Assembly (NCBI GenBank): GCA_963750945.1
Contig: CAVVSH010000004.1
Coordinates: 719,004-783,003 of the forward strand
DNA: 64,000 bases
Origin: an uncultured Actinomycetota bacterium
GTDB lineage: Bacteria; Actinomycetota; UBA4738; HRBIN12
Direction: 5' to 3'
The translations under genes were made by a program, and so were the position numbers. Below the pieces are notes generated by a model. The model was not told where the DNA came from, did no database searches, and worked only from the letters and a program-made list of their open reading frames with translations. The first letter of the stretch is position 1, and every line of letters starts with the position of its first letter. This document shows positions 2,456-55,779 of the stretch, in pieces.

Positions 2456-3817
2456 TCACCCGGGACACTCGGCGCCGGCGCAGGATCGGAGCCGCTCCAG
2501 CCTGGCCCCGAGTCGAGCCACGTTGGGATCGTTCGCGTCATCGCCATCATGCAGCAGATTCACGAGCTGATCGGGATCGCCGCGGATCCGGTAGTACTCG
2601 CGGAACGTGACCTCCTTCGTTCGATCGCTCACATACTCCACATAGATCCATGACTTCGTGAGGACCGCGGTCCACGAAGGTTCGTCCGAGATCCGCCATG
2701 ATTCGAGGAGGAGTCCAGCGCGATCGGAGGTTCGATCGAGCAGGTTGCGCCCGTCGAACGCGGATGGGGCCTCGACGCCCGCTGCGGCGAACATCGTGGG
2801 GCCGATGTCCAGGCTGCCGACCAGCCTGGTGTCGATGCCGCCGGCGGCCACGTGACCGGGCCAGCGGACGTAGAGAGGCACCTCGATCGCGGGCAGGTAC
2901 GGCGCAGCCTTCTTCGAGCGCCCGTGCTCGCCCCACAGGTAGCCGTTGTCCGAAACGAAGATCGCGGCGGTGTTCTGCAGCTCGCCCATCTCTTCCAGCG
3001 CGCGCATGATGCGATCGACCTGATCGTCGACCGCCACGAGCGACCGGAGGGCAGGGACCCGCCGCAGTTGGATAGCGTCGAGGCTCCGTAGACGGCGGCT
3101 TCGCACGTAGCCCGGCTTGTCGCTCCGGTCGACCTCGAGCATCGCGGAGTTGGGTTCGAGCGGCGGCACGACCACATCGAGGTATCGAGGTTCCACCGTC
3201 GCGGGCAGATGCGGAGCCATGAAGGCGAGGTCGAGGAACCATGGCCGTGCGTCGTCGCGCTCGCGGTTCATGAGGAAGGAGATCGAGAGGTCGCCGAGGA
3301 AGCTCGTCGAGTTCTGTGTCACTTCCCTGACCTCGCCGTCGACATTCCACTCCTCGCCTCCGAATGCGACGAATGGTGTGGTCGCCCACCGATCGAAGTT
3401 GGCGGGATCTCGTTCGTTCGGCCAGTTGTTCAGATACTTGCCGAAGAGGGCGGTCCGGTATCCGTCGTTCCGAAGGGCTCGCTGCACCATCAACGGCTCC
3501 GCGGCCGCAAGGACGTCGAGGTTCTCCCGATTCGTGTGGATCCCATGATTGTGCGCATACAGTCCGGTCAAGATCGATGCGCGCGCCGGACAGCAGGCGG
3601 GAGTCGTGACGAAGGCGTTCTCGTACCGGGTTCCGCCGGCTCCGAACCATCGTTCGACATCCGGCATCATCGACATCGTTCCGTCTCGCTGGTCGTCGGT
3701 GACGATGAGCAAGATGTTCGGTCTCCCCGCATCTGGGGAGTTGTCGTGAGGCGTGACCGGATCGGCGGTACAGGCAACCAGCGTGAGTAGCAAGAGAAGC
3801 GCCCACTGCCGATTCAC
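2456..3817 (-). CDS. Sulfatase, probable lipoprotein
   Basis: PNILLIVTDDQR; formylglycine motif CCPARASILTG; FGKYLN; SDNGYLWGEHG; lipobox-like LVAC after a hydrophobic stretch. Confidence 0.9.
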   Translation of the reverse strand: MNRQWALLLLLTLVACTADPVTPHDNSPDAGRPNILLIVTDDQRDGTMSMMPDVERWFGAGGTRYENAFVTTPACCPARASILTGLYAHNHGIHTNRENLDVLAAAEPLMVQRALRNDGYRTALFGKYLNNWPNERDPANFDRWATTPFVAFGGEEWNVDGEVREVTQNSTSFLGDLSISFLMNRERDDARPWFLDLAFMAPHLPATVEPRYLDVVVPPLEPNSAMLEVDRSDKPGYVRSRRLRSLDAIQLRRVPALRSLVAVDDQVDRIMRALEEMGELQNTAAIFVSDNGYLWGEHGRSKKAAPYLPAIEVPLYVRWPGHVAAGGIDTRLVGSLDIGPTMFAAAGVEAPSAFDGRNLLDRTSDRAGLLLESWRISDEPSWTAVLTKSWIYVEYVSDRTKEVTFREYYRIRGDPDQLVNLLHDGDDANDPNVARLGARLERLRSCAGAECPG

Positions 3818-13143: not shown

Positions 13144-13173
13144 TTGACGGATGTCCTGGCGGGGCCCTATCGT
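13144..13173 (+). promoter_or_regulatory. Sigma70-type promoter of the DUF6504-like gene
   Basis: TTGACG (13144-13149), 18-bp spacer, TATCGT (13168-13173). Confidence 0.6.
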
Positions 13174-13181
13174 TGCCCACC

Positions 13182-13195
13182 CGAACACACGTTCG
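13182..13195. promoter_or_regulatory. LexA (SOS) box
   Basis: CGAAC-ACAC-GTTCG, just downstream of the predicted -10; matches the Gram-positive GAAC-N4-GTTC consensus. Confidence 0.85.
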
Positions 13196-13210
13196 ACCAG
13201 CGAGGCACTC

Positions 13211-13456
13211 ATGACGAAGCGGTTCGACGAGGAGGTGATGGTCGAGCGGGACGGGGGGATGCCCTCGGGCTTCGAATGGCGAGGGCGTCGCTATCGGGTC
13301 GTGGACGTGATCGGACGGTGGCGGATCGAGGGCCGGTGGTGGGAGGACGGCCGCGATCGCGAGTACTGGCGGGTCGAGGCGCGCGGCGGCGCCGTCTGGG
13401 ACCTGTACCACGACCGCCAGCGCGACCGCTGGCACGTGGAGCGCTTGTGGGATTGA
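13211..13456 (+). CDS. DUF6504-like small protein resembling the ImuB C-terminal domain
   Basis: GAGG RBS and ATG at 13211; Trp-rich PSGFEWRGRRYRV..RWW..REYWRVE..WDLY..WHVERLWD. Confidence 0.8.
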   Translation: MTKRFDEEVMVERDGGMPSGFEWRGRRYRVVDVIGRWRIEGRWWEDGRDREYWRVEARGGAVWDLYHDRQRDRWHVERLWD

Positions 13457-13460
13457 TCTT

Positions 13461-13513
13461 CTCGGGGGCTACGCTCGCTGGCGCTCGCTACTTGAGCCCC
13501 CGAACCCCCGGGG
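13461..13513 (-). repeat. Hairpin (REP-like) repeat, intergenic copy
   Basis: TCGGGGGCT...AGCCCCCGA inverted repeat between convergent genes. Its reverse complement aligns with the units inside dnaE2. Confidence 0.75.
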
Positions 13514-14740
13514 CTACGCGCGCTCGGCCAGCGCGCTCACGATCCGCTCGAGGGACCACTCGAGATCCTCGCGCGACACCACCAGCGGCGGCGCCAGCCG
13601 GACCGTGGTCTCCTGCGTGTCCTTCGCGAGCACTCCCAGCGCCAGCAGCCGTTCGCAGACGTCGCGCGCGGGCGCGGCCTCGGGCGTGAGCTCGATGCCG
13701 AACCACAGGCCGCGCCCGCGAACCTCCGTCACCGACGTGGGCGCCTCCTCGCGCAGCCGCTGGAGGAACCACGCCCCGAGGTCCTTCGAGCGCTGCTGAT
13801 ACTCGTGGGTCCGAAGGAGCGCGAGGACCTCGAGACCCACCGCGCACGCGATCGGATTGCCTCCGAACGTGCTCCCGTGCTCACCCGGTTCGAAGACCCC
13901 CAGCACCTCGGCCCGCGACACGACCGCCGACACCGGCAGGATCCCGCCGCCGAGCGCCTTCCCCAGGATGTACACGTCCGGCTTCACGCCGTCGTGGTCG
14001 CACGCGAACGTCGCACCGGTTCGGCCGAGTCCCGTCTGGATCTCGTCGGCCAGCAAGAGGACGTTGCGTTCGGTGCAGAGTCGTCGCGCTTCGCGAAGGT
14101 AGCCGTCGGGCGGGATCCGGACGCCGGCCTCGCCCTGGATCGGCTCGACGAGGAACGCCACGACGTCCGGATCCTCGAGCGCCGCCTCCAGCGCCGTGGC
14201 GTCGCCGAAGGGAACCGACACGAACCCCGGCGTGAAGGGACCGAAGCCCTTCGTCGCCGACGGATCGGAGGAGAAGCCCACGATCGTGATCGTCCTGCCG
14301 TGGAAGTTCCCGTCGCACACGACGACCTTCGCGCGCCCCTCCGGTACGCCCTTCACGTCGTAGCCCCACCGGCGTGCGGTCTTGAGGGCGGTCTCGACCG
14401 CCTCCGCGCCCGAGTTCATGGGAAGCACCATGTCCATGGCGCAGAGCTCGGCGAGCTGTTCGCAGAACGGTCCGAACCGGTCGTGGTGGAACGCGCGGGA
14501 GGTGAGCGTGACGAGGTCGAGCTGTGCCTTGGCCGCGCGGATCAGATCCGGATGGCGATGGCCGAAGTTCAACGCGGAGTAGGCGGACAGCATGTCGAGG
14601 TAGCGCTTGCCCTCGACGTCGGTGACCCATGCGCCCTCGGCCTCGGACACGACGACGGGGAGCGGGTGGTAGTTGTGCGCGCTGTGCAGCTCCGTCAGCG
14701 CGATCAGCTCGGCCGTCAGGAGCCCGCTCTGAGTCTTCAT
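13514..14740 (-). CDS. rocD: Ornithine--oxo-acid transaminase
   Basis: SAHNYHPLPVV, DMLSAYSALNFGH, MNSGAEAVETA, DEIQTGLGRTG, HGSTFGGNP. Confidence 0.93.
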   Translation of the reverse strand: MKTQSGLLTAELIALTELHSAHNYHPLPVVVSEAEGAWVTDVEGKRYLDMLSAYSALNFGHRHPDLIRAAKAQLDLVTLTSRAFHHDRFGPFCEQLAELCAMDMVLPMNSGAEAVETALKTARRWGYDVKGVPEGRAKVVVCDGNFHGRTITIVGFSSDPSATKGFGPFTPGFVSVPFGDATALEAALEDPDVVAFLVEPIQGEAGVRIPPDGYLREARRLCTERNVLLLADEIQTGLGRTGATFACDHDGVKPDVYILGKALGGGILPVSAVVSRAEVLGVFEPGEHGSTFGGNPIACAVGLEVLALLRTHEYQQRSKDLGAWFLQRLREEAPTSVTEVRGRGLWFGIELTPEAAPARDVCERLLALGVLAKDTQETTVRLAPPLVVSREDLEWSLERIVSALAERA

Positions 14741-14828
14741 GGGTCGCAATCCTACGCATCGAACGCCGACCGTCGAGCCGACCATTAGGATGCTGTCTCG
14801 GTCCCGGCGTCCTCGAGGACGAGGCTGC

Positions 14829-16829
14829 ATGAGGAGTTCCGATGAACCCGTGAGGATCGAGACGACGGACGACGAGGTTTCGCCGTCGCCCGTACGGCCC
14901 CGTGACGCGCTGATCGGAAGCGTGGCCCTCGTCGCGGGGTCGCTCCTTTCCGTGGTCCTCTATCTGAGAGCGTTCACGCAGGCGCTCGCCCCGCTGGGTC
15001 CCGACCTGTTCGGCTACATCTGGCAGACGCGGATCGTCGGGAACGCTCCGCTCTCGTCGATCGAAGCCCGCCCCGGGGTGCCGATCCTCGGCTCGGTGCT
15101 CGCCGGTTTCGGCCTGACCTCGGACGGGTTGGCGCCGCTGGTGCTCGCCCCCGTGATGATGGTGGCGCTCGGGTTCGCGGTCGCGGTGGCCCTCCGCCTG
15201 GCCTTCCGTCTCCCTCTCTGGTCCGTGGGTGTCATCGGATCCGTCGTGACCCTGTGGGGCGGCGCACTCCATCTCGCGCAGGGGCACCTGGCCAATCTCC
15301 TGAGCCTCGTGTGCATCGTTCCCGCGCTGGTCGTGCTCGCCGTGCCGAGCGAACCCTGGAGGGTCCGCGTGGCGTGGGCGGCGGTGATCGTGACGGCATC
15401 GGGGCTGGCGCATGCAGGGCTCCTTGCCTTCTACGCGGTGACGGCGGGCCTCTGGGTCCTGCTCTCGGCCCCTTCGCTCCTGCGCGCCCGTAGAGAGGGC
15501 AGGCGATGGTGGCAGGAGCCGTCGTGCTCGTTCGTGGTCGCGCTCGTGATCGGGGGCGCCGCGGTCGGCCTGGTGATCTTCGTCGCGATGGGGGTCACCG
15601 TGGAGGAGTTCACCAACATCGACGATCGCGTTACCGAGTTCGGGAACCGGCTCGCGCAGATCGAAAGAGCGATCGGATTGTGGGTGTCCGCGATGACCGT
15701 GCTCGCCGCCGTCGGCGCCGTCGCGGTGTGGAGGTTGTCGCGACGCTCGTCTCGGGCGCTCACCCTCCTGGGCCTCGCGTGGCTGACGGCGTCGGCGGTC
15801 GGAGGACTGCTCGCCGTCCGCGATCCGACGTTCCCGGGTCATCGCGTGCTGGGAGTCATCCTTCCTCTTCCCGCGTTGGCCGGGATGGGCATCGTGGGGA
15901 TCGCCCTCCTCGTGATCGGCTGGAAGGCGACGGCGACCGACGGGCGAACCGGCCTCCGTCTGGCGCGCGCGTTCGCGGCGGCGTGCGTGGTGGTCGTCCT
16001 GACGATGCTCGTCGTGTCCCCGCGACTCGACCGTCTCGCGAGGCGGGCCGGAGGCGAGCCTCGCGGAGCGCTGGCGCGCACCATCGCCTCCTATATCGCG
16101 GTCGTCGATCCGCAGGTTCCGGTCGTGGTCTTCGCCGATCCCCCGACACGACTCGCCGCACTGGCGTGGAGAGGGCGGCAGAATCAGGTCCGCGCCCTCG
16201 CGCCCACCGAGTCGATCGACCGGATCTTCTTCCTGATCGGTCGACTCGGCGAAGACGGCCTGCCGGAACAGGGTGTGGCGCCGAGGATGCAAGGGGACAG
16301 AGCCTTCGCGTACGCCGTCGAGCAGAGTTGGTCGGCCGGTGGAGCTGCACTCGAGGAAGGGGCGATCATCCTGGCGCCCCGGGCGTACATGCGCGGGCAG
16401 GCGTGGAGACGGATCGCCTCCGACGCCAGCCGCGTGGTGATCCCCGAGCTCGCCGTCTTGCGAGGGCCGCGTCAGCCGCCAGGCGATCTCGTGCCGACCG
16501 CGAGGGTGCCCATCGCGCACGCCCGGTGGCAGATCATCGCCTGTCTCCTCGCGCTCGTCGTGATGGGCGGGGGATACGGCGCGGCGGTCGCATGGGGACG
16601 CGGAGGATCCGTGGTCGACGGCATCGCGCTCGCTCCCGCCGTCGGCATGGTGGTGGTGGTGACGATCGGCGTGACGGTGGCGCTGCTGGGCGCGGACCCG
16701 GCCGCAGCAACCGGCCTGATCCCGACGGGCCTCGCCGTGGTGGGTGGCTACCTACTGGCGTGGCGACGGTGGCAGGAGCGCCGGAGGAACCCTGACGATC
16801 TTCGCGAGGCCGTCGGTCAGCCGGTGTAG
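14829..16829 (+). CDS. Large polytopic membrane protein, possibly GT-C-like
   Basis: Many TM segments; GPDLFGYIWQTR...ARPGVP loop after the first TM; start uncertain. Confidence 0.6.
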   Translation: MRSSDEPVRIETTDDEVSPSPVRPRDALIGSVALVAGSLLSVVLYLRAFTQALAPLGPDLFGYIWQTRIVGNAPLSSIEARPGVPILGSVLAGFGLTSDGLAPLVLAPVMMVALGFAVAVALRLAFRLPLWSVGVIGSVVTLWGGALHLAQGHLANLLSLVCIVPALVVLAVPSEPWRVRVAWAAVIVTASGLAHAGLLAFYAVTAGLWVLLSAPSLLRARREGRRWWQEPSCSFVVALVIGGAAVGLVIFVAMGVTVEEFTNIDDRVTEFGNRLAQIERAIGLWVSAMTVLAAVGAVAVWRLSRRSSRALTLLGLAWLTASAVGGLLAVRDPTFPGHRVLGVILPLPALAGMGIVGIALLVIGWKATATDGRTGLRLARAFAAACVVVVLTMLVVSPRLDRLARRAGGEPRGALARTIASYIAVVDPQVPVVVFADPPTRLAALAWRGRQNQVRALAPTESIDRIFFLIGRLGEDGLPEQGVAPRMQGDRAFAYAVEQSWSAGGAALEEGAIILAPRAYMRGQAWRRIASDASRVVIPELAVLRGPRQPPGDLVPTARVPIAHARWQIIACLLALVVMGGGYGAAVAWGRGGSVVDGIALAPAVGMVVVVTIGVTVALLGADPAAATGLIPTGLAVVGGYLLAWRRWQERRRNPDDLREAVGQPV

Positions 16830-17059
16830 CCCTCGACCGTCCGAGGATCGCGGATGCTCGTGTCGTCGGGGTCCTGCCCCGCCGTCCGCCTCGCCCGGCG
16901 CTGATGGAGCAGGTCCCAGCACTGGTCGAGGGTGACGCCGAGCTCACGGAGCCGTTCCCGCTCGGCGTCGGTGGCCTCTCCGCGGCCTTCGCGCTCCCAG
17001 AGCTCGTGCTCCTCGTGCGCGATCTCGTTGATCCGGCCGATCACCTGCTGGTCATCCAT
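16817..17059 (-). CDS. DUF2630 family protein
   Basis: MDDQQVIGRINEIAHEEHEL...LDQCWDLLHQRRARR...VEGY, preceded by GAGGAG. Confidence 0.85.
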   Translation of the reverse strand: MDDQQVIGRINEIAHEEHELWEREGRGEATDAERERLRELGVTLDQCWDLLHQRRARRTAGQDPDDTSIRDPRTVEGYTG

Positions 17060-17146
17060 CGAAGAGCTCCTCTCACGCCTCCTGAGGAGTGTCGCAGACG
17101 ATGGAACATCCGTTTGGGCCCTAGACAGCCTCGATAGGAGCCACCT

Positions 17147-17170
17147 AGTATCGAACATGTGTTCGATACT
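17147..17170. promoter_or_regulatory. LexA (SOS) box of dnaE2-dinB
   Basis: AGTATCGAAC-ATGT-GTTCGATACT extended palindrome; overlaps a TAGTAT -10-like hexamer and the dnaE2 start. Confidence 0.92.
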
Positions 17171-20100
17171 GTGAGGAGCTCGGGGGGGTTCGTCCATCTC
17201 GACGTCCGGTCCGCGTTCTCGTTGAAGGAAGGGGCGTTCGTCCCCGAGCATCTCGCCGCGCTCGCGAGCGAGATGGGGATGCCGGCCGTGGCGATCACCG
17301 ACCGGGACGGGCTCTACGGCGCCGCCCGGTTCGTCGCCGCCTGCGAGCGGGGAGGGATCCGTCCGATCCTCGGCGCCTCGCTCACGGTCCGGGAGGGTGG
17401 ACACGACGCCCCGCTCGTCCTGCTCGCGCAGGACGGGCGGGGCTACGCCAACCTCTGCCGTCTGGTCACCGACGCGCACATGCTGGGGGAGCGCGGGGAT
17501 CCCTCGATCACCGCGACCCAGATCTGTGCCCACGCCACCGGTCTCGTCGCGCTCGCCGGCCCGCGTTCGCACGCGGGCCGGCTCGCCGTCCGCGGCCTCA
17601 TCGACGCCGCCGCGGCGGCGCTCCATCCGCTCCATGAAGCGTTCGGCCGCGAACGGTTCTTCGTCGCGGCCGAGCACCGGATGGAACGGGGCTCGAACAC
17701 GGAGATCCGTTCGATGCTCCGCCTCGCCGAGCGGATGGGTGTCCGCGCCGTCGCCACCAATCCCATCCGCTACCTCGTGCCCGAGGACGCGTTCCTGGCC
17801 GACGCGCTCGAGTGCATGCGTCGGATCGTGCCGATCGCGGCGAACCACGTCTCCCGCACCAACGCCGAAGGATGGCTGAAGCCCGCCGAGGCGATGCGCC
17901 TGCTGTTCGCAGAACGGCCCGACCTCTGCGACACGACCCTGGAGATCGCCGACTCGTGCCGGTTCGACCTCGGGCTGAAGAAGGTCCATTTCCCGGACTT
18001 CCCGACGCCGGCCGGACGCAGCGCCGACGCGATCTTGGCCGAGCGCTGCTGGGCGGGCGTCTACGACCGAGGGATGACCGAGGACGAACGCCTCCGCGAT
18101 CGGCTGCATCTCGAGCTCTCGATGATCCGCCGGATGGGCTACGCGGCGTTCTTCCTCACGGTCGCCGACATCACGGCCGACATCCGCGCGATGGGGATCC
18201 ACGTCGCGTGTCGCGGCTCGGCCGCCGGCTCGCTCGTGTGCTACCTGCTCCGGATCTCCGACGTCGACGCGCTCCGTCACGACCTCTCGTTCGAACGGTT
18301 CCTGAACCCGATGCGCGACGAGCTCCCGGACATCGATGTCGACGTCGAGTCCGCCCGGCGTGAGGACGTCTACGACATGGTGCTCTCGCGTCACGGCGAC
18401 GAGCGGACCGGCTGCGTCGCGATGATCGACACGTACCGGGCGCGCGCCGCGGTCCGCGAGGTGGGGAAGGCGCTCGGACTGCCGGAGGTCGAGGTCGGGA
18501 TGGTGGCGAAGTCGTTCCCGCACATCTCGGCGAGGAACCTCCGGGAGTCGCTCACGCGCCTCCCGGAGCTCGACGGGATCAACCTCCCGATGGCCCAGCT
18601 GGAGCTCCTGTTCCGTGTGGCCGAGCGACTGGACGGGTTCCCGCGCCACATCGCGTTGCACCCGTGCGGGATCGTGCTGTCCTCCCACGACCTCGTCGAC
18701 CGCGTGCCGCTGGAGCGATCCGCGAACGGGCACCGGATGATCCAGGCCGACAAGGACGACGTCGAGCTGCTCGGGTACCTCAAGCTCGACGTCCTCGGCG
18801 TGCGGATGCTGTCGTCGATGCGCCATGCGACGGATGAGATCGCGCGGACGATGGGGGAGAAGGTCGACCTCGATCGGATCCCGCTCGACGACGAGCTCAC
18901 GTTCGAGATGATCCGTGACTCCGACACCCTCGGCTGCTTCCAGATCGAGTCCCCCGGCCAGCGCGAGTTGCTGCAGAAGCTCCAGCCGAGCCGGTGGGAG
19001 GATCTGATCGTCGACATCTCGTTGTTCCGGCCAGGTCCGGTGAAGTCCGACATGATCACCCCGTACCTCCGGCGGCGCGCCGCCTTGGAGGGGCCGGTCT
19101 ACATCCATCCCGATGTGCGACCCGCGCTGCGGGAGACGTTCGGGGTGATCGTCTACCACGAGCAGGTGATGCGGACGCTCGCCGCGGTCGCCGGCTGGGA
19201 CCTCACCTACGCCGATCACGTCCGCCGTCATCTGGATCACGAGGAGCTCGTGCCCGGGTTCCGCGAGGAGTTCCTCCGGCGCGCAGCGGAACGGGACGTG
19301 GATGCCATGGCTGCGGAGAAGACCTGGGACGCCGTCGCCCAGTTCGCCTCGTTCGGCTTCTGCAAGGCGCACGCGGCGGCGTTCGCGGTGCCGACGTATC
19401 GGAGCGCCTGGTTGAAAGCGCACTACCCGGCGCACTTCATGGCCGGGATCCTCACGCACGACCCGGGGATGTATCCCCGGCGGGCGCTCCTGGACGACGC
19501 GCGCCGTCACGGCATCCCCATCCTGCCGCTGGACGCGAACGTGAGCGAGCAGGAGTACACGGCGGAAGAGACCCCCCAGGGAGGGGGGTCTGGGGGGCTC
19601 AAGAAGCGAGCGCCCCGCGCGAGCGTAGCCCCCCAGGAGGTAGGGGTCTGGGGGGCTCAAGAAACGAGCGCCCCACGCGAGCGTTGCCCCCCAGGGATAT
19701 GCCATCCGGTTGGGACTCCAGGACGTGCACGGGATCTCGGACGCGGAGGTCCGCTCGATCCTCATGGCGCGCGCGGAGAGGCCCTTCGCGAGTGTGGAGG
19801 ACTTCCTCACCAGGACCTCGGTGGCCAAGCCGGTGGTGGAGGCGCTCGCGCACGCCGGCGCGTTCGACGCGCTCCCGGAGCGAACCAACCGCCGCGGCCA
19901 TCTCTATACGGCGATGACCACCCAGCCCGAACGTGAAGGAGATCAGCTGCGGCTGTCATCCGTGTCGAGCGTGACCGACCATCGCTCGGATCGATTCGCC
20001 TTCCAGGATTACACCGACGCCGAGGTCGTCCGAGCGGAGCTCGAGGTCCTCGGGCTGGACGCCACTCGCCACATCGTCAGCTTCTACGAACCGCTGCTCG

Positions 20101-20510
20101 CCGACCTCGGCGTCACATACTCCGAAGACGTCTGGCGATGCCGGGCGAACGAGTGGGTGATGGTTGCCGGGGTGAAGGTCTCCTCACAGACCCCGGCGAT
20201 CCGAAGCGGCCAGCGGATCATCTTCCTCACGCTCGATGACGGCACCGGTCCGCTCGAGGTCACGGTCTTCGAGTCGGTGCAGCCCAGGGTTGCCAAGACC
20301 GTGTTCCATGCGTTCGCGATGGCGGTATGGGGACAGGTGCGCAGGACCGGACTGAAAGGGGTGAGCGTCGTCGCCGAGGACATCTGGGACCTGACGGCAT
20401 TGCACCGGGCACGCGCCGACGGCTCGCTCCGCGAGGTGATGGCCGGGCCCGCGCAGCCGCGGAGCCCGGATCGTCGACTCTGGCATGCGAGCCCCGGGTC
20501 TGCGGGGTGA
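17159..20510 (+). CDS. dnaE2: Error-prone DNA polymerase III alpha (DnaE2/ImuC) with an apparent +1 frameshift inside a repeat insertion near 19640
   Basis: PHP domain (HLDVRSAFS, TDRDGLYGA), RGSAAGS, catalytic PDIDVD and FCKAHAAAF lie in ORF 17159..19936. HhH/OB parts (AIRLGLQDVHGIS, FLTLDDGTG) and the WHASPGSAG tail lie in the frame ending at 20510. Confidence 0.9.
19572..19697 (+). repeat. Tandem 57+58-bp hairpin repeat insertion inside dnaE2
   Basis: Two units CCCCCCAG..GGGGTCTGGGGGGCTCAAGAA.CGAGCGCCCC.CGCGAGCGT.G, bounded by CCCCCCAGGGA at 19572-19582 and 19687-19697. Confidence 0.9.
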
Positions 20511-20566
20511 CGGGCTCTCGCGGGATGATGACCTCGTGAGCCAACCATGAGGATCTTTGCGCACCC

Positions 20567-21745
20567 ATGACTCGTAGGCCGTCCGAGCCGATCCTCCACG
20601 TCGACCTCGACGCGTTCTATGCATCGGTCGCGATCCTGAAAGATCCGTCTCTGAAGGGGAAACCGGTGATCGTCGGGGGAACCGGCGCCCGAGGGGTCGT
20701 CACCAGCGCTTCGTACGAGGCTAGGCGATACGGGGTCCACAGCGCGATGCCGTCGGTTCGCGCGCGCCGGCTGTGTCCGGACGGGATCTTCCTTCCCCCG
20801 GACTTCGACGCCTATCGCGTCCACTCGAACCGCTTCCGGGAAGTCCTGCTCGCGCACACCCCGCTCGTGGAGCCGATCTCCATGGACGAGGCGTTCCTCG
20901 ATGTCGGCGGCGCCGTCATCCTGTTCGGCTCGCCGGAAACGATCGCGAAGAGGATCCGTCGTGAGGTCGCCGGGGAGGTCGGCATCACCTGCTCGGTGGG
21001 CATCGCGCCGACCAAGTTCGTGGCGAAGCTCGCCTCGGACGGCTGCAAGCCCGACGGGTTGCTCCACGTGCATGCGGGGGACGTCGCGAGCTTCCTCGAG
21101 CCACTCGCCGTGGGGAGGCTCTGGGGTGTGGGGGAGAAGACCGCAGAGATGTTGGGGCGCTTGGCGATCCGGACGGTGGGCGACCTGGGCAAGACGCCCG
21201 TGACGATCCTAGAACGACTCCTCGGGGAGGCGGCGGCGAGGCATCTCACCGAGCTGGCGAGGGGGATCGACGATCGGCCGGTCGTGGCGTACGAGCGGCC
21301 CAAGTCCATCGGTCACGAAGAGACGTTCGATCGGGATCTGGACGACGAGGACGAGATCCTGCGCGAGCTGCTCGCGCTGTCAAGCCGGGTGGCGGCTCGT
21401 CTGCGGGAGGACGGGTACCGATCGAGGACGGTGACGCTGAAGGTCCGGCTCGCGAACTTCACGACGCTGACGCGTTCGCGGACGCAGGCCGATCCCACCG
21501 ATCTGGGCGCGGATCTCCATCGGATCGTCTCGGAGCTGTACCGAGGTCTGCCGGGGGCCACGCGCAGGGTTCGGCTCCTGGGTGTCCAGGCGGGCGGGCT
21601 GGTCTCGGCAGGTGCTCAGCAACTGGCGCTCCTTCAGTCCGAACGCTGGGACGACGTGGAGCGCACCGTCGACCGCATCGAGCGTCGTTTCGGCCCCGGC
21701 GCGGCGGGTCCCGCGAGCCTGCTCCGCAGAACTCCTCGACGGTAG
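20567..21745 (+). CDS. dinB: DNA polymerase IV
   Basis: ILHVDLDAFYASV, SYEARRYGVHSAM, catalytic SMDEAFLD, KSIGHEETF, clamp-binding-like QLALL. Confidence 0.95.
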   Translation: MTRRPSEPILHVDLDAFYASVAILKDPSLKGKPVIVGGTGARGVVTSASYEARRYGVHSAMPSVRARRLCPDGIFLPPDFDAYRVHSNRFREVLLAHTPLVEPISMDEAFLDVGGAVILFGSPETIAKRIRREVAGEVGITCSVGIAPTKFVAKLASDGCKPDGLLHVHAGDVASFLEPLAVGRLWGVGEKTAEMLGRLAIRTVGDLGKTPVTILERLLGEAAARHLTELARGIDDRPVVAYERPKSIGHEETFDRDLDDEDEILRELLALSSRVAARLREDGYRSRTVTLKVRLANFTTLTRSRTQADPTDLGADLHRIVSELYRGLPGATRRVRLLGVQAGGLVSAGAQQLALLQSERWDDVERTVDRIERRFGPGAAGPASLLRRTPRR

Positions 21746-52227: not shown

Positions 52228-55200
52228 GTGGAAAACCCCTCGCCGGAGGTCGCCACGGCAGCGCGAGACGGTTTCGTCCATCTGCACGTTCACTCCGAGT
52301 ATTCGCTGCTGGACGGGGCTGCCCGCATCGAGGCTCCCGCGGCCAACCGATCCGCACCGACGATCTTCTCGGAAGCGCAGCGCATGGAGATGCCGGCGGT
52401 CGCCATCACCGATCACGGGGTGATGTTCGGCGCGCTCCCGTTCTACGAGGCGGCGCACGCCCACGGCATCAAGCCGATCCTCGGGGTCGAGGCCTACGTC
52501 GCGCCGGGTTCCCGATTCGACCGCGAACCAGGAGAGAACGAGGAGAAATACCACCACCTCACGCTGCTCGCCCGCAACGAGACGGGCTATCGGAACCTGC
52601 TGAAGCTCGTGTCGGCGGCCCACCTCGAGGGCTTCTACCACCGCCCGCGCATGGACAAGCAGCTCCTCGCGGAGCACGCCGAAGGGCTGACCTGCCTGTC
52701 CGGTTGCCTGTCGTCGGAACTGTCGAAGTTCCTGCTCACCGAACAAGAGGCTCGAGCGCGGGCGGTGGCCGCGGAGTACCGGGACATCTTCGGCGCCGGC
52801 AATTACTGGATCGAGCTCCAGGACCACGGCCTCTCGGAGCAGCGCCGGGTGACGCCGCGGCAGGTGTCCCTCGCACGGGAGCTCGGCATCGGCCTGGTCG
52901 CGACCAACGACCTGCACTACACATCGGCCGCCGACGCCAAGCCGCACGACGTGTTGCTCTGCATCCAGCAGCAGAAGCTGCAGACGGACCCGAAACGGCT
53001 TCGCTTCGACTCCGAGGAGTTCTATCTGAAGTCGGCGGAGCAGATGCGGGCCCTCTTCGCGGAGCTCCCCGAAGCCTGTGATCACACGCTCGAGATCGCG
53101 GAGTCGGTGGAGCTCGAGCTCATCTACGGCGACGCCGCCCCGCTGGAGGAGCGCTACCACCTGCCTCGCTTCGAGGCGCCGGACGGTCGGTCGCTCGAGG
53201 CGTACCTCCGCGAGCTCACGCTCGCCGGGGCCACGCAGCGGTACGGAGATCCGTTGCCCTCGGCGATCGGGGACCGACTCGATCTGGAGATGAGCGTGAT
53301 CCTCCAGATGGGTCTGGCCGGGTACTTCCTGGTGGTCTGGGATCTGATCCGCTTCGCTCGCGAGCAGGGCATCCGCGTCGGACCGGGCCGAGGATCGGCC
53401 GCCGGCTCGGTCGTGTCCTATTGCCTTCGGATCACCGACGTCGATCCGCTGAAGTACGGGTTGATCTTCGAGCGCTTCCTGAATCCCGAGCGGATCCAGA
53501 TGCCGGACATCGACATGGACTTCGACGAGCGTCGCCGTGACGAGGTGATCAGGTACGCGAGTACGAAGTACGGCGCCGACCACGTCGCGCAGATCGTCAC
53601 GTTCCAGACGATCAAGGGCAAGCAGGGGATCCGCGACGCCGCGCGCGTCCTCGGTTTCCCGCCGTCGGTGGGGGACCGCCTGTGCAAGATGTATCCCTCG
53701 CCGGTGATGGGTCGCGATCATCCGATCGAGGAGGCGCTGCGTCTGTCCCCGGAGCTCGCGACCGCCTACGAGGGCGAGCCGGAGGCAAAAGAGATCGTCG
53801 ACACGGCGAAGGCGCTCGAGGGGCTGCGCCGGGAGGATTCGGTCCACGCGGCCGGCGTCGTGATCGGCGACGCGCCGCTGGTGCGCTATCTGCCGCTGAA
53901 GCTGTCGAAGGATTCGCGCGACGACTCCAAACGCATCGTCACGCAGTTCGACATGCACGGCGTGGAGAAGCTGGGTCTGCTCAAGATGGACTTCCTCGGG
54001 CTCCGCAACCTCTCGGTGATCGAGGACACCCTTCGTCATCTCCGCGTCGACGGGATCGAGATGGACATCGACCACGTGGCACTCGACGATCCGGACACCT
54101 ACGCGCTCCTGTGCCGCGGCGAGACCACCGGCGTGTTCCAGATGGAGTCCGGCGGGATGCGCAGCCTGATCAAGCTCCTCGAGCCCGATCGGTTCGAGGA
54201 CCTGATGGCCCTCGTGGCGTTGTATCGGCCCGGCCCGCTCAACAACGGCCTGCACACCGAGTACGCGGAGCGCAAGCACGGACGCAAGCCGGTGACCTAC
54301 CCACATCCCGACCTGGAGCCGATCCTGCGGGATACCTACGGCGTCATGGTGTACCAGGAGCAGGTGATGCAGATCGCCGTGACGATGGCCGGCTTCTCGA
54401 TGGGCGAGGCGGACACGCTCCGCAAGGCGATGGGCAAGAAGAAGATCGAGTACCTGATGCCCTTCAAGGAGCGCTTCGTCAAGGGGGCCGTCGATCGCGG
54501 CTACCCCGAACGGAGCGCAGCGGACATGTTCGAGATGTTCGTCCCGTTCGCGGACTACGGGTTCAACGCCTCGCATGCGTGCGCGTACGGCCTCGTGGCC
54601 TACCAGACCGCCTACCTGATGGCGCACCACCCGGTCTCGTACATGGCGGCGATCCTCACGTCGGTGAAGGACGACAAGGACCGCAAGCCGTACTACCTCT
54701 ACGCGTGCCGCGCGATGGACATCGAAGTGCTTCCGCCGGACGTGAACGACTCCGCGCTCGACTTCGCTCCGGCCGCCGGCGGCGGTCGGGCGATCCGGTA
54801 CGGGCTCTCCGCGGTGCGTAACGTCGGCGAGGGCGCGGTGCAGCAGATCATCGAGGCACGAGACGCGAAGGGCCCCTTCGAGTCCTTCTCCGACTTCTGC
54901 CGGAAGGTCGACCCGTCGGTCCTCGCGAAACGGATGCTGGAGTCGTTGATCCTGGCCGGCGCGTTCGACTCGCTGGGGTACCGGCGGCGGGCGCTGCTGG
55001 TCTCACAGGACAAGGTGTCCGGCCCGATCGTCGCCGAGCGCAAGGCGGAGGCGGCGGGGCAGTTCTCGCTGTTCGGCGGCGACTCGGAGGTCGGGCAGAT
55101 CGACGAGTCGGTCCTGCAGGGGGAGGAGTTCGACAAGCCTGAGCTCCTCCGCTACGAGAAGGAGATGCTCGGGCAGTTCGTCTCGGACCATCCGCTCCTC

Positions 55201-55779
55201 GAGGTGGCGGACGCACTTCGAGCGCAAAGCACGCACGACATCGGCGACCTCGAGGGCGCCGATGACGGCGAGCTCGTGACCGCGGCCGGCATCATCGGCG
55301 GGGTCGCCAGGAAGTACACGAAGCGGGGGGAGCCCTACGCGCAGTTCCGTCTCGAGGGGCTCGCGGCCGGCGTCGAGGTGGTGGCGTTCCCCTCGGTGTA
55401 CGAAGCAGATCCCGACCTCATCTCGGCGGACCGGATCGTGGTGGTCGTCGGGCGGATCGACCGGCGGGGACGGGAGCTCCAGATCCGGGCGAACGAGGTG
55501 CGCGAGCCGATCCTCGCCGGTGTCGCCGCGCAGAACGGACCGGAGTCCGTCGTGATCGACCTCACCGCGGCGGCGTGCACGGACGCCGTACTGGCGAAGA
55601 TGGCCGAGCTGCTGCGGTCACGGCCGGGACCCGCGCCCGTGAAGGTGCGGTTCCACTCCTCTGCCGGCGTGCGACCACTCGACATGGGCGAGTTCCGCGT
55701 GGACTCCTCGGGCGCGCTGATGGGGGAGCTGACCGGATTGCTCGGGGCCGGCACCGCCCGCGTGGAACGCTTCGTCTGA
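52228..55779 (+). CDS. dnaE: Replicative DNA polymerase III alpha
   Basis: HLHVHSEYSLLDGA, TDHG, GRGSAAGS, PDIDMDF, clamp motif QFSLFG; no intein seen. Confidence 0.96.
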   Translation: MENPSPEVATAARDGFVHLHVHSEYSLLDGAARIEAPAANRSAPTIFSEAQRMEMPAVAITDHGVMFGALPFYEAAHAHGIKPILGVEAYVAPGSRFDREPGENEEKYHHLTLLARNETGYRNLLKLVSAAHLEGFYHRPRMDKQLLAEHAEGLTCLSGCLSSELSKFLLTEQEARARAVAAEYRDIFGAGNYWIELQDHGLSEQRRVTPRQVSLARELGIGLVATNDLHYTSAADAKPHDVLLCIQQQKLQTDPKRLRFDSEEFYLKSAEQMRALFAELPEACDHTLEIAESVELELIYGDAAPLEERYHLPRFEAPDGRSLEAYLRELTLAGATQRYGDPLPSAIGDRLDLEMSVILQMGLAGYFLVVWDLIRFAREQGIRVGPGRGSAAGSVVSYCLRITDVDPLKYGLIFERFLNPERIQMPDIDMDFDERRRDEVIRYASTKYGADHVAQIVTFQTIKGKQGIRDAARVLGFPPSVGDRLCKMYPSPVMGRDHPIEEALRLSPELATAYEGEPEAKEIVDTAKALEGLRREDSVHAAGVVIGDAPLVRYLPLKLSKDSRDDSKRIVTQFDMHGVEKLGLLKMDFLGLRNLSVIEDTLRHLRVDGIEMDIDHVALDDPDTYALLCRGETTGVFQMESGGMRSLIKLLEPDRFEDLMALVALYRPGPLNNGLHTEYAERKHGRKPVTYPHPDLEPILRDTYGVMVYQEQVMQIAVTMAGFSMGEADTLRKAMGKKKIEYLMPFKERFVKGAVDRGYPERSAADMFEMFVPFADYGFNASHACAYGLVAYQTAYLMAHHPVSYMAAILTSVKDDKDRKPYYLYACRAMDIEVLPPDVNDSALDFAPAAGGGRAIRYGLSAVRNVGEGAVQQIIEARDAKGPFESFSDFCRKVDPSVLAKRMLESLILAGAFDSLGYRRRALLVSQDKVSGPIVAERKAEAAGQFSLFGGDSEVGQIDESVLQGEEFDKPELLRYEKEMLGQFVSDHPLLEVADALRAQSTHDIGDLEGADDGELVTAAGIIGGVARKYTKRGEPYAQFRLEGLAAGVEVVAFPSVYEADPDLISADRIVVVVGRIDRRGRELQIRANEVREPILAGVAAQNGPESVVIDLTAAACTDAVLAKMAELLRSRPGPAPVKVRFHSSAGVRPLDMGEFRVDSSGALMGELTGLLGAGTARVERFV

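Follow-up and report, generated by a model that had tools for sequence, protein, structure and literature searches.

The gene for a DnaE2-type DNA polymerase in a 64-kb stretch of contig CAVVSH010000004.1, from an uncultured soil Actinomycetota genome (64,000 nucleotides, hereafter the window), carries a tandem array of hairpin repeats at positions 19572-19697, and in the source assembly this array leaves the 3′ part of the gene out of frame by one base. We are highly confident that the array consists of two complete units, preceded by an 11-nt 3′ fragment, of a hairpin repeat of 55-60 nt that is restricted to the genus. Relatives have from 0 to 3 units in one frame at the same codon position, with frequent gain and loss, indicating that the insert is a tolerated, fast-changing coding tandem repeat. 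What is elsewhere an intergenic hairpin repeat here contributes additional residues to a loop of an error-prone polymerase, and an uncultured soil actinobacterial genus offers a between-species series of 0, 1, 2 and 3 units, together with a broken form, at one codon position. For the frameshift itself, we hold the case to be about evenly balanced that it is a real, very young loss-of-function allele, perhaps still polymorphic; this judgement takes in the small share that we allow to a reversible switch and the far smaller one that we allow to +1 recoding.

Tandem Repeats Finder described positions 19572-19697 as a repeat with a period of 58, 2.2 copies, 90% matches and a score of 208, and a repeat search of the window returned two 58-nt copies that are 84% alike. 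The repeat search also gave identical 11-mers (CCCCCCAGGGA) at 19572-19582 and 19687-19697, with a spacing of 115 nt. These results confirm the original prediction, made from the sequence alone, in which two tandem units (57 and 58 bp) lay between identical 11-mers. A better parse of the array begins with an 11-nt partial unit, which is the 3′ end of the repeat and forms the upstream direct repeat (19572-19582, plus strand), followed by 60 and 55 nt. On the basis of the repeat search and the fold, unit 1 occupies 19583-19636 (plus strand) with arms at 19590-19599 and 19627-19636, 10 nt each and 100% complementary, and unit 2 occupies 19644-19697 (plus strand) with arms at 19648-19657 and 19685-19694 that have one mismatch. 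The 27-nt core shared by the units had 2 matches in the window compared with 0 in 100 shuffles, and the array DNA folds at -43.4 kcal/mol (z -3.56), with 0 of 200 shuffles folding as well. Two of the three core substitutions between the units (AAG/AAA and GTA/GTT) are synonymous, as had been pointed out before, and the third (CGC/CAC) exchanges R for H.

The upstream frame, which runs from 17159, reads ...EYTAEETPQGGGSGGLKKRAPRASVAPQEVGVWGAQ... and passes through the array as ...EETPQG GGSGGLKKRAPRASVAPQ EVG..., with GGSGGLKKRAPRASVAPQ encoded by unit 1; past the array it is out of frame and meets a stop at 19934-19936. The downstream frame (*GSGGLKKRAPHASVAPQGYAIRLGLQDVHGIS...) opens right behind a TAG, reads unit 2 as GSGGLKKRAPHASVAPQG, continues as GSGGLKKRAPHASVAPQGYAIRLG... 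and ends at the natural stop at 20511-20513. The 115 extra bases amount to a +1 shift of the polymerase gene, and excising 19583-19697 fuses ...EETPQG to YAIRLG in frame, which bears out the earlier claim that removing 115 bp restores an intact DnaE2. The 10-nt spacer GAGGTAGGGG that separates the units (19637-19646, plus strand, from the sequence and its comparison with relatives) can be taken as the place where the frame changes. At this point relatives have GAG GTA GGG GGG (12 nt) or GGA GGG GGG (9 nt), both of which are in frame; with 10 nt instead of 9 or 12, the part of the protein comprising the helix-hairpin-helix (HhH) and OB domains is not translated together with the rest of the polymerase. 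The AGGAGG tail (19635-19640) reaches into the spacer, which also contains the TAG that is the stop of the downstream frame (19641-19643) and a G4 run (19643-19646) where relatives have G6. The original prediction had named both the G4 run and the neighboring G6/C6 runs as places where loss of one base would repair the frame. The G4 run lies in the spacer, and all five runs of 6 in the insert read as 6, the same length as in in-frame relatives.

We read the site in 21 species of the genus via its flanking peptides (tblastn anchoring). A bare hairpin tip of 36-39 nt (EYTAEEVGGGEY) was found in nine of them and one in-frame unit (75-96 nt) in another nine, and one species (G023) has three exact 57-nt units (195 nt), such that 19 of the 21 are in frame with 0, 1 or 3 units. 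The remaining two, the source genome (148 nt) and G015 (80 nt), are out of frame; put differently, the insert is read in frame in 10 of the 12 species that have one. Two in-frame units were found in four of the five matches of a protein search with the three-unit module (top 8000 candidates scored), and all five matches were DnaE2-type polymerases. Counted across relatives' dnaE2 genes, as the original prediction had proposed, the units therefore number 0, 1, 2 and 3. The protein P0038 is identical to the upstream-frame translation of the source gene over its first 66 residues, including the EETPQG start, and then stays in frame (...APQR GGSGG...APQR YGIRLG). When presence and absence were placed on a tree built from the flanks, with the insert left out, 6 changes were needed, at least 4 of which are forced by well-supported branches. 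The genomes that supplied the empty site of G005 (L033), the one-unit allele of G002 (L038) and their places in the tree are flagged as unpublished, and G002 also enters the pattern, alignment and array-position counts given below; a further three such genomes, G059, G041 and G049, contribute to tallies alone. No conclusion depends on unpublished genomes.

Coding copies are always read as GGSGGLK(K/E)RAPRASVAPQ, the same one of the unit's two open frames, and their stems are G6/C6, with loops of such a length that the unit comes to a multiple of 3. They retain the codons TCT, CGA and GTA. In the genes of the source genome about 90% of third positions are G or C and about 10% are A or T, and the retention of these A/T-ending codons despite such a preference means that the nucleotide sequence has been conserved or repeatedly renewed, and not the peptide alone.

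Alignment to the Pol III alpha proteins of E. coli and Taq places the insert in a predicted surface loop, the tip of a beta-hairpin ahead of the (HhH)2 domain, with the site falling on the hairpin tip near D827-G829 of the E. coli protein, just before the HhH motif. This position, the in-frame reading in 19 of 21 species and the four further proteins with two units support the earlier suggestion that a palindromic element is tolerated there as coding sequence. In another genus (L132:1685-1740 and L142:1640-1800), the unit of the source array was observed in frame at a second dnaE2 site, located between AFDEL and RRRQL, after the HhH domain and before the OB linker; it is read there in the same frame as at the first site (GGSGGLKERA.ASVAPQ), and the unit of L142 is preceded by a 3′ fragment. 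The hairpin tip and the HhH-OB linker have thus been invaded repeatedly. At the first site, sequences from the wider family hold inserts of 33-300 nt. Most of the long inserts from other genera (L049-L054 and L086-L148; 100-300 nt), which belong to several unrelated sequence types, are near-perfect palindromes that are read in frame, their fold energies being given without a shuffle control. Two further copies of the L112 insert lie in the genome that carries it, and no further copy was found for L104 or L128; some inserts at the first site are therefore not dispersed repeats today.

Outside dnaE2, the repeat is a dispersed and mostly intergenic element. In the source genome, BLAST and an nhmmer profile located 12 units spread over 8 loci, four of which have tandem pairs, and arrays that open with a 3′ fragment, as the one in dnaE2 does, also occur at C4:133740, at C6:54634 and next to the rocD-like gene described below. 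A strict pattern matched 21 of 26 genomes of the same genus, 0 of 10 from the family's other genera and 1 of 24 from the remaining families of the order, and the same pattern written backwards had no matches. We also tested whether the unit might be absent from intergenic DNA, or unrelated to the inserts of the relatives, and neither is the case. Among 44 distinct aligned units, CTCAAG.AGCGAG and GAGCGTAGCCCC are invariant and the apical stem covaries (GCGC/GCGC, GGGC/GCCC, GCC/GGC). In the hairpin model for these units 94.4% of 695 cells pair and the covariation score was matched by 0 of 500 shuffles, the informative pairs being the outer 3 and the apical ones, as the alignment rows were chosen by a pattern that demands G and C runs. 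The repeat is built from a G/C stem of 9-10 bp, an inner loop that does not vary (CAAGNAGCGAG ... GAGCGTAG) and encloses the short covarying apical stem, and a 3′ AGGAGG tail. A GTAG is present in all 44 units, in the loop beside the 3′ arm, and in tandem arrays it precedes the inter-unit hairpin.

The genomic positions of the arrays outside dnaE2 follow a common plan. Of 26 scorable arrays, 16 have the stop codon of a co-oriented gene 9-25 nt ahead of the stem, 10 have a start codon 1-30 nt past the stem, behind the AGGAGG tail, and 8 face a convergent gene, many of these loci being orthologous between species and hence not independent. In several copies a TGA or TAG abuts the 5′ G run. The upstream frame runs into or through the unit in 3 of the 26 arrays, which are otherwise intergenic. 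Copies in the source genome lie in the rpsR-rplI, rpoB-rpoC and ABC ATPase-permease gaps, next to the gene for RNase P RNA and downstream of the rocD-like gene. Periods in intergenic arrays range over 55-63 nt, and G4 is the usual 5′ arm of the intergenic copies in this genome. We read the repeat as an intercistronic "stop-hairpin-Shine-Dalgarno" cassette, similar in kind to the repetitive extragenic palindromes (REPs) and mycobacterial interspersed repetitive units (MIRUs) of other bacteria, whose usual home is after the stop of a co-oriented gene and often before the next start. Judging from position alone, the intergenic copies may have a role at the RNA level, such as protection of 3′ ends, processing or donation of a Shine-Dalgarno sequence. 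The idea that the repeat is aimed at SOS genes was rejected, as only 2 of the 8 loci touch mutasome genes and the rest are in operons of ribosomal, RNA polymerase or transporter genes. The unit belongs to no Rfam family, the sole real match in that search being the RNase P RNA beside one copy. At that locus (L007, C4:563776-563879 of the source genome, G000), a tandem pair of units adjoins the 3′ end of the RNase P RNA gene (RF00010, 215 bits) on the opposite strand. At another (L003, C3:89903-89957), the frame of the ABC-transporter ATPase passes through the unit and stops 51 nt after the start of the stem, and the unit may encode the last ~17 residues of that protein.

The comparisons with known systems made here and below hold for excerpts of the cited papers. 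Intragenic REPs are the closest precedent: REP-tagged proteins include DnaE2 polymerases, the open reading frames (ORFs) hit by REPs can be the sole coding sequences hit in a species, and the inserts are probably in flexible loops (Di Nocera, De Gregorio and Rocco 2013, PMC3733652). In both cases the elements are small G/C-rich stem-loops that are mostly intergenic, with few lying wholly inside ORFs and in frame, which here holds for the relatives with in-frame units. However, those REPs have a GTAG or CGTC tag 5′ of the stem, whereas here an invariant GTAG stands on the loop side of the 3′ arm; the present repeat also comes from another lineage (uncultured soil Actinomycetota) and has a longer unit of 55-60 nt, an asymmetric inner loop and an AGGAGG tail (PMC3733652). 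REPs of the GTAG type are accompanied by a RAYT transposase (PMC3733652), and a search for the RAYT/Y1 family (PF01797) gave 0 matches in the source genome, which is 95.96% complete, with the search controls matching in 6 of 14 genomes. Finally, the intragenic REPs are in frame, unlike the allele of the source assembly (PMC3733652). Intragenic REPs in dnaE2 having been published already, the present case extends a known phenomenon: it is a new repeat family and a new lineage for what was described in 2013 (PMC3733652), and its unusual points are the clean series of 0, 1, 2 and 3 units, the restriction to DnaE2 among the coding sequences seen so far, and the out-of-frame allele.

The original prediction had likened the insert to Rickettsia palindromic elements (RPEs), to which the source repeat can be compared by description. 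The likeness is apt for how the insert works, as RPEs are also palindromic, are carried in frame in protein genes, encode a conserved peptide and occupy places compatible with the fold (PMC10969869), but intragenic REPs in dnaE2 (PMC3733652) are nearer to it. RPEs are ~150 bp long and occur in dozens of unrelated genes of a different phylum, as opposed to a unit of 55-60 nt that is coding only in DnaE2-type polymerases, at two sites (PMC10969869). For the intergenic copies, the MIRUs of the variable-number tandem repeat loci (MIRU-VNTR) offer a parallel: their units of 40-100 bp are often in tandem, lie between co-oriented operon genes and are transcribed with them, and vary in copy number between strains or species (PMC3184786). 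The ends of MIRUs are close to the flanking stop and start codons (PMC3184786); around the present arrays, stops and starts lie 9-25 and 1-30 nt from the stem in the counts given above. MIRUs differ in genus and sequence and are intergenic, unlike the array in the coding loop, and their tetranucleotide direct repeats were not seen here (PMC3184786).

We then considered whether the frameshift in the source assembly is real. In a frame-switch scan of the window, in which ORFs filtered by the G+C content of third codon positions (GC3) were compared with their orthologues, dnaE2 was the sole switch common to the comparisons with G021, G019 and G003. The other flagged events in the window, which are short, N-terminal or seen with one relative only, are read as scan artefacts or as breaks in the relative itself. 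A codon-position detector applied to the whole genome reported 12 events, with dnaE2 scoring 71.6 and the next event 47.9; this detector caught 1 of at least 4 known breaks in G019, and its counts are lower bounds. The second and third signals (47.9 and 37.7, at C14:69498 and C14:71400 of G000) are 2 kb apart and on opposite strands, with no homopolymer at the switch. Frame switches were not enriched at G/C runs of 6 or more, occurring at 16 of 281 callable runs (5.7%) compared with 4.4% at random positions, and long runs are as frequent in the window as in the short-read relative G021.

These results bear on the possibility of an assembly or consensus artefact, in which the true insert would be an in-frame pair of units (114 or 117 nt) and the one-base excess would come from polishing a strain-variable repeat rich in G/C runs. 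We consider this a serious contender, with somewhat less than an even chance of being correct. An artefact is disfavored by an assembly that looks clean, both in its genome-wide number of frameshift-like events and in having no other window event seen in more than one relative, by the lack of homopolymer compression or of frame switches concentrated at homopolymers, and by a break that falls at a G4 run while the five neighboring runs of 6 were read correctly. Going from G6 to G4 would take a two-base miscall, and the junction differs from known in-frame junctions by several bases, beyond its run length.

Several other observations, however, weigh against a real lesion, and most of them favor an artefact. 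All other broken inserts at the site (G015 C1, G015 C4, L099 and L118) are in metagenome-assembled genomes (MAGs) of the long-read type, and in the wider set, among MAGs with inserts of more than 60 nt, the insert was broken in 3 of 20 of this type compared with 0 of 25 short-read or other MAGs, the long-read class being inferred from record titles. The contiguity of the source assembly (15 contigs, the largest of 932 kb) suggests that it was made from long reads too. The G015 bin has two dnaE2 loci that are 96.4% identical, C1:14700-20700 (L180) and C4:43700-48419 (L179), both broken at the site in different ways: the C1 copy has an 80-nt insert with G5 where G6 is expected, and what is left in the C4 copy is a decayed insert of 62 nt that contains a C7 run. 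Other frameshifts occur in long-read MAGs of the genus, with at least 4 in 68 kb of G019 and with breaks elsewhere in dnaE2 in G008, G012 and G014. Residual indel errors are known from Nanopore bins under about 40-fold coverage (PMC9262707). The site varies between strains in soil, with several alleles co-occurring in single soil runs, and such variation at the locus invites consensus errors. The near-identical sibling allele P0038 continues in frame. Lineage-specific changes were 14 synonymous and 2 non-synonymous in the upstream part and 10 and 2 in the downstream part, and the latter figures imply that the downstream part was under purifying selection and translated for nearly the whole terminal branch. 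A unit-unit junction with G4, G5 or G6 was not found in JGI (Joint Genome Institute) metagenome contigs or species-representative genomes, and the 5′ junction had no exact match in a scan of public sequences, but both scans may leave out records near the window and their negatives are uninformative. Public sequencing runs included none holding the source allele (the best share of words was 0.38), and in the Logan contigs of 4 soil runs the site was covered by alleles of relatives only, which are silent on the frame of the source allele. Under either reading, the break is young. A frameshift in such an insert of a long-read MAG should not be called a pseudogene or a switch without read-level checks. 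As a separate observation, contiguous relatives that are 70-78% "complete" show many frame switches, one of them in the dnaE1 of G019 (C12, L057-L060), that look like assembly indels.

If the break is real, part of the SOS mutagenesis machinery of this strain is gone or can be toggled. The toggle would be a special case of a real lesion, in which changes in unit number and in the G/C runs flip an SOS-induced DnaE2B polymerase ON and OFF in soil populations; lineages would then alternate between mutator-capable and mutator-silent states, and the broken source allele would be one OFF phase. We regard this as improbable. It could draw on the speed with which unit number shifts between species (0, 1, 2 or 3 units, at least 4-6 changes), on the in-frame sibling allele, on the fact that losing one base from either adjacent run of 6 would repair the frame with few residues altered, and on continuing selection on the downstream part, as expected for transient OFF states. 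On the other hand, variation within a population was not seen in the soil contigs, which show alleles of relatives only, OFF alleles number 0 of 25 in short-read or other MAGs with inserts, and the differences between most alleles are entire in-frame blocks, a sign of selection for ON only. The runs are also only 6 nt long, and known phase switches mostly use longer tracts. The ON/OFF switch on SOS mutagenesis put forward in the original prediction thus found no evidence in its favor, the longest runs being of 6 nt and the break lying at none of them.

A second special case of a real lesion would leave the full-length protein in production through a programmed +1 frameshift, in which the P-site tRNA-Gly slips from GGG at 19643-19645 to GGG at 19644-19646 with help from the AGGAGG, which resembles a Shine-Dalgarno sequence, as in prfB. 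GGG-G is a perfect site for +1 re-pairing, the AGGAGG stops 2 nt short of it, the downstream frame starts exactly at 19644, immediately behind the TAG, and the downstream part is under purifying selection. Even so, we consider such recoding highly unlikely. The A-site codon is GTC, which is not a stop and, judging by GC3, is not rare, and the prfB frameshift needs a set spacing and a slow A-site codon. Moreover, programmed sites are conserved, yet searches of relatives and public contigs did not turn up this junction. An old, decaying pseudogene, to which the split of the gene across two frames might point, is similarly hard to credit: both pieces are free of other stops and frameshifts and match the G021 protein at 93-95% identity, the changes in both are mostly synonymous and the SOS box is intact. 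A real and recent lesion and a consensus artefact are the readings to which we give most weight.

Whichever of these holds for the source allele, unit number probably changes through recombination, template switching or slippage that involves the ends of the repeat and look-alike native sequence, as we infer from the sites themselves. The native hairpin-tip codons of dnaE2 (GAGGAGGTGGGGGGAGGGGAG) resemble the inter-unit AGGAGG-TA-GGGG junction, and some one-unit alleles have a duplicated GAGATGGGGGG on either side. At the 3′ end of the rocD-like gene, which is filled here and empty in G019 and G021, the native GAGCG(A/C)GCGTAG resembles the 3′ half of the unit. No terminal inverted repeats were found beyond the stem, and no dedicated transposase was found in the source genome with the Y1/RAYT profile. 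Look-alike native sequence at both sites, together with the missing Y1/RAYT family, leads us to favor homology-guided template switching or unequal recombination, which would be followed by slippage within arrays; the proposal is based on look-alike sequences at two sites only. The frameshifted allele could have arisen if the array exchanged sequence with the intergenic form of the repeat or slipped towards it; in that form the 5′ arm is G4 and the period is not divisible by 3.

The identity of the host gene was assessed from its domains, its regulation and its neighbors. The upstream piece (17159-19582, plus strand) has the PHP, DNA_pol3_alpha and finger domains of Pfam, extends up to EETPQG and has NF004225 as its best family (668 bits). 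The downstream piece (19698-20513, plus strand) holds HHH_6 (profile positions 23-85 of 90), forming the (HhH)2 region, and an OB fold through to the stop, and is 94% identical to G021. The source genome has two Pol III alpha genes, the other of which is DnaE1 at 52228-55779 (1358 bits against a cut-off of 1002). The intact orthologues of G021 and G023 score 801.5 and 798.4 bits against NF004225 ("error-prone DNA polymerase") and miss its curated cut-off of 939, although this is still their best family, with DnaE next at 757 bits. SOS boxes were called with the consensus of LexA-type boxes. A perfect SOS (LexA)-type box (TCGAACATGTGTTCGA, 17151-17166, plus strand) lies over the GTG start of the polymerase gene and is the sole match without mismatches in the window; there are 7 perfect boxes in the 3.08-Mb genome, and the box on the dnaE2 start is also present in G021. 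Directly downstream of the polymerase gene is dinB, for a Y-family polymerase (Pol IV; 20567-21745, plus strand; Pfam IMS and IMS_C; NF003015 381.7 bits, cut-off 367). A stand-alone ImuB-C-like (DUF6504) gene at 13151-13456 (plus strand; PF20114 57 bits, cut-off 24.2) lies 4 kb upstream of dnaE2; its product is Trp/Arg-rich and 81-101 aa long, 81 aa from the likely start, the ATG of MTKRF..., and a one-mismatch SOS-type box stands ahead of it at 13181-13196. No ImuB-like protein was found among the 4 IMS matches. Given the second Pol III alpha paralogue beside DnaE1, the SOS box and the mutasome partners, the DnaE2 label is reasonable, and so is the earlier description of the gene as a mutagenic dnaE2, its best NCBIfam match being an error-prone polymerase even though it falls below the cut-off.

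This gene set matches the putative DnaE2B-PolY-[ImuB-C] mutasome of Actinobacteria (Timinskas et al. 2026, PMC12926913), with which it shares a DnaE2 paralogue beside an apparently active Y-family polymerase and a stand-alone ImuB-C (DUF6504). It departs from that module in that ImuB-C lies 4 kb upstream with its own SOS-type box, outside the operon (PMC12926913). A modelled contact joins the (HhH)2 region of DnaE2 to the thumb of ImuB (PMC12926913), and because this contact lies near the insertion site, changes in the loop may be of some consequence.

Another copy of the repeat is found in this neighborhood at 13458-13509 (minus strand; BLAST and nhmmer), immediately beyond the stop codon that ends the rocD-like gene (13517-14749, minus strand; ornithine aminotransferase by family match), and is absent at the orthologous site in G019 and G021. 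The stop of the ImuB-C-like gene is 2 nt from this copy. Two other genes of the region were tried as mutasome components and rejected. The 666-aa gene at 14826-16829 (plus strand) was considered as ImuB but has no Pfam or NCBIfam family, and its relatives are all unnamed or "hypothetical"; an 80-aa ORF at 16932-17174, considered as ImuB-C, is Ser/Arg-rich. The 666-aa protein, encoded directly upstream of dnaE2, has 35 public relatives and is kept in G019 with 88% identity. A further one-mismatch SOS-type box (CCGAACCATCGTTCGA) was noted at 3642-3657, inside or at the edge of a 453-aa ORF on the minus strand.

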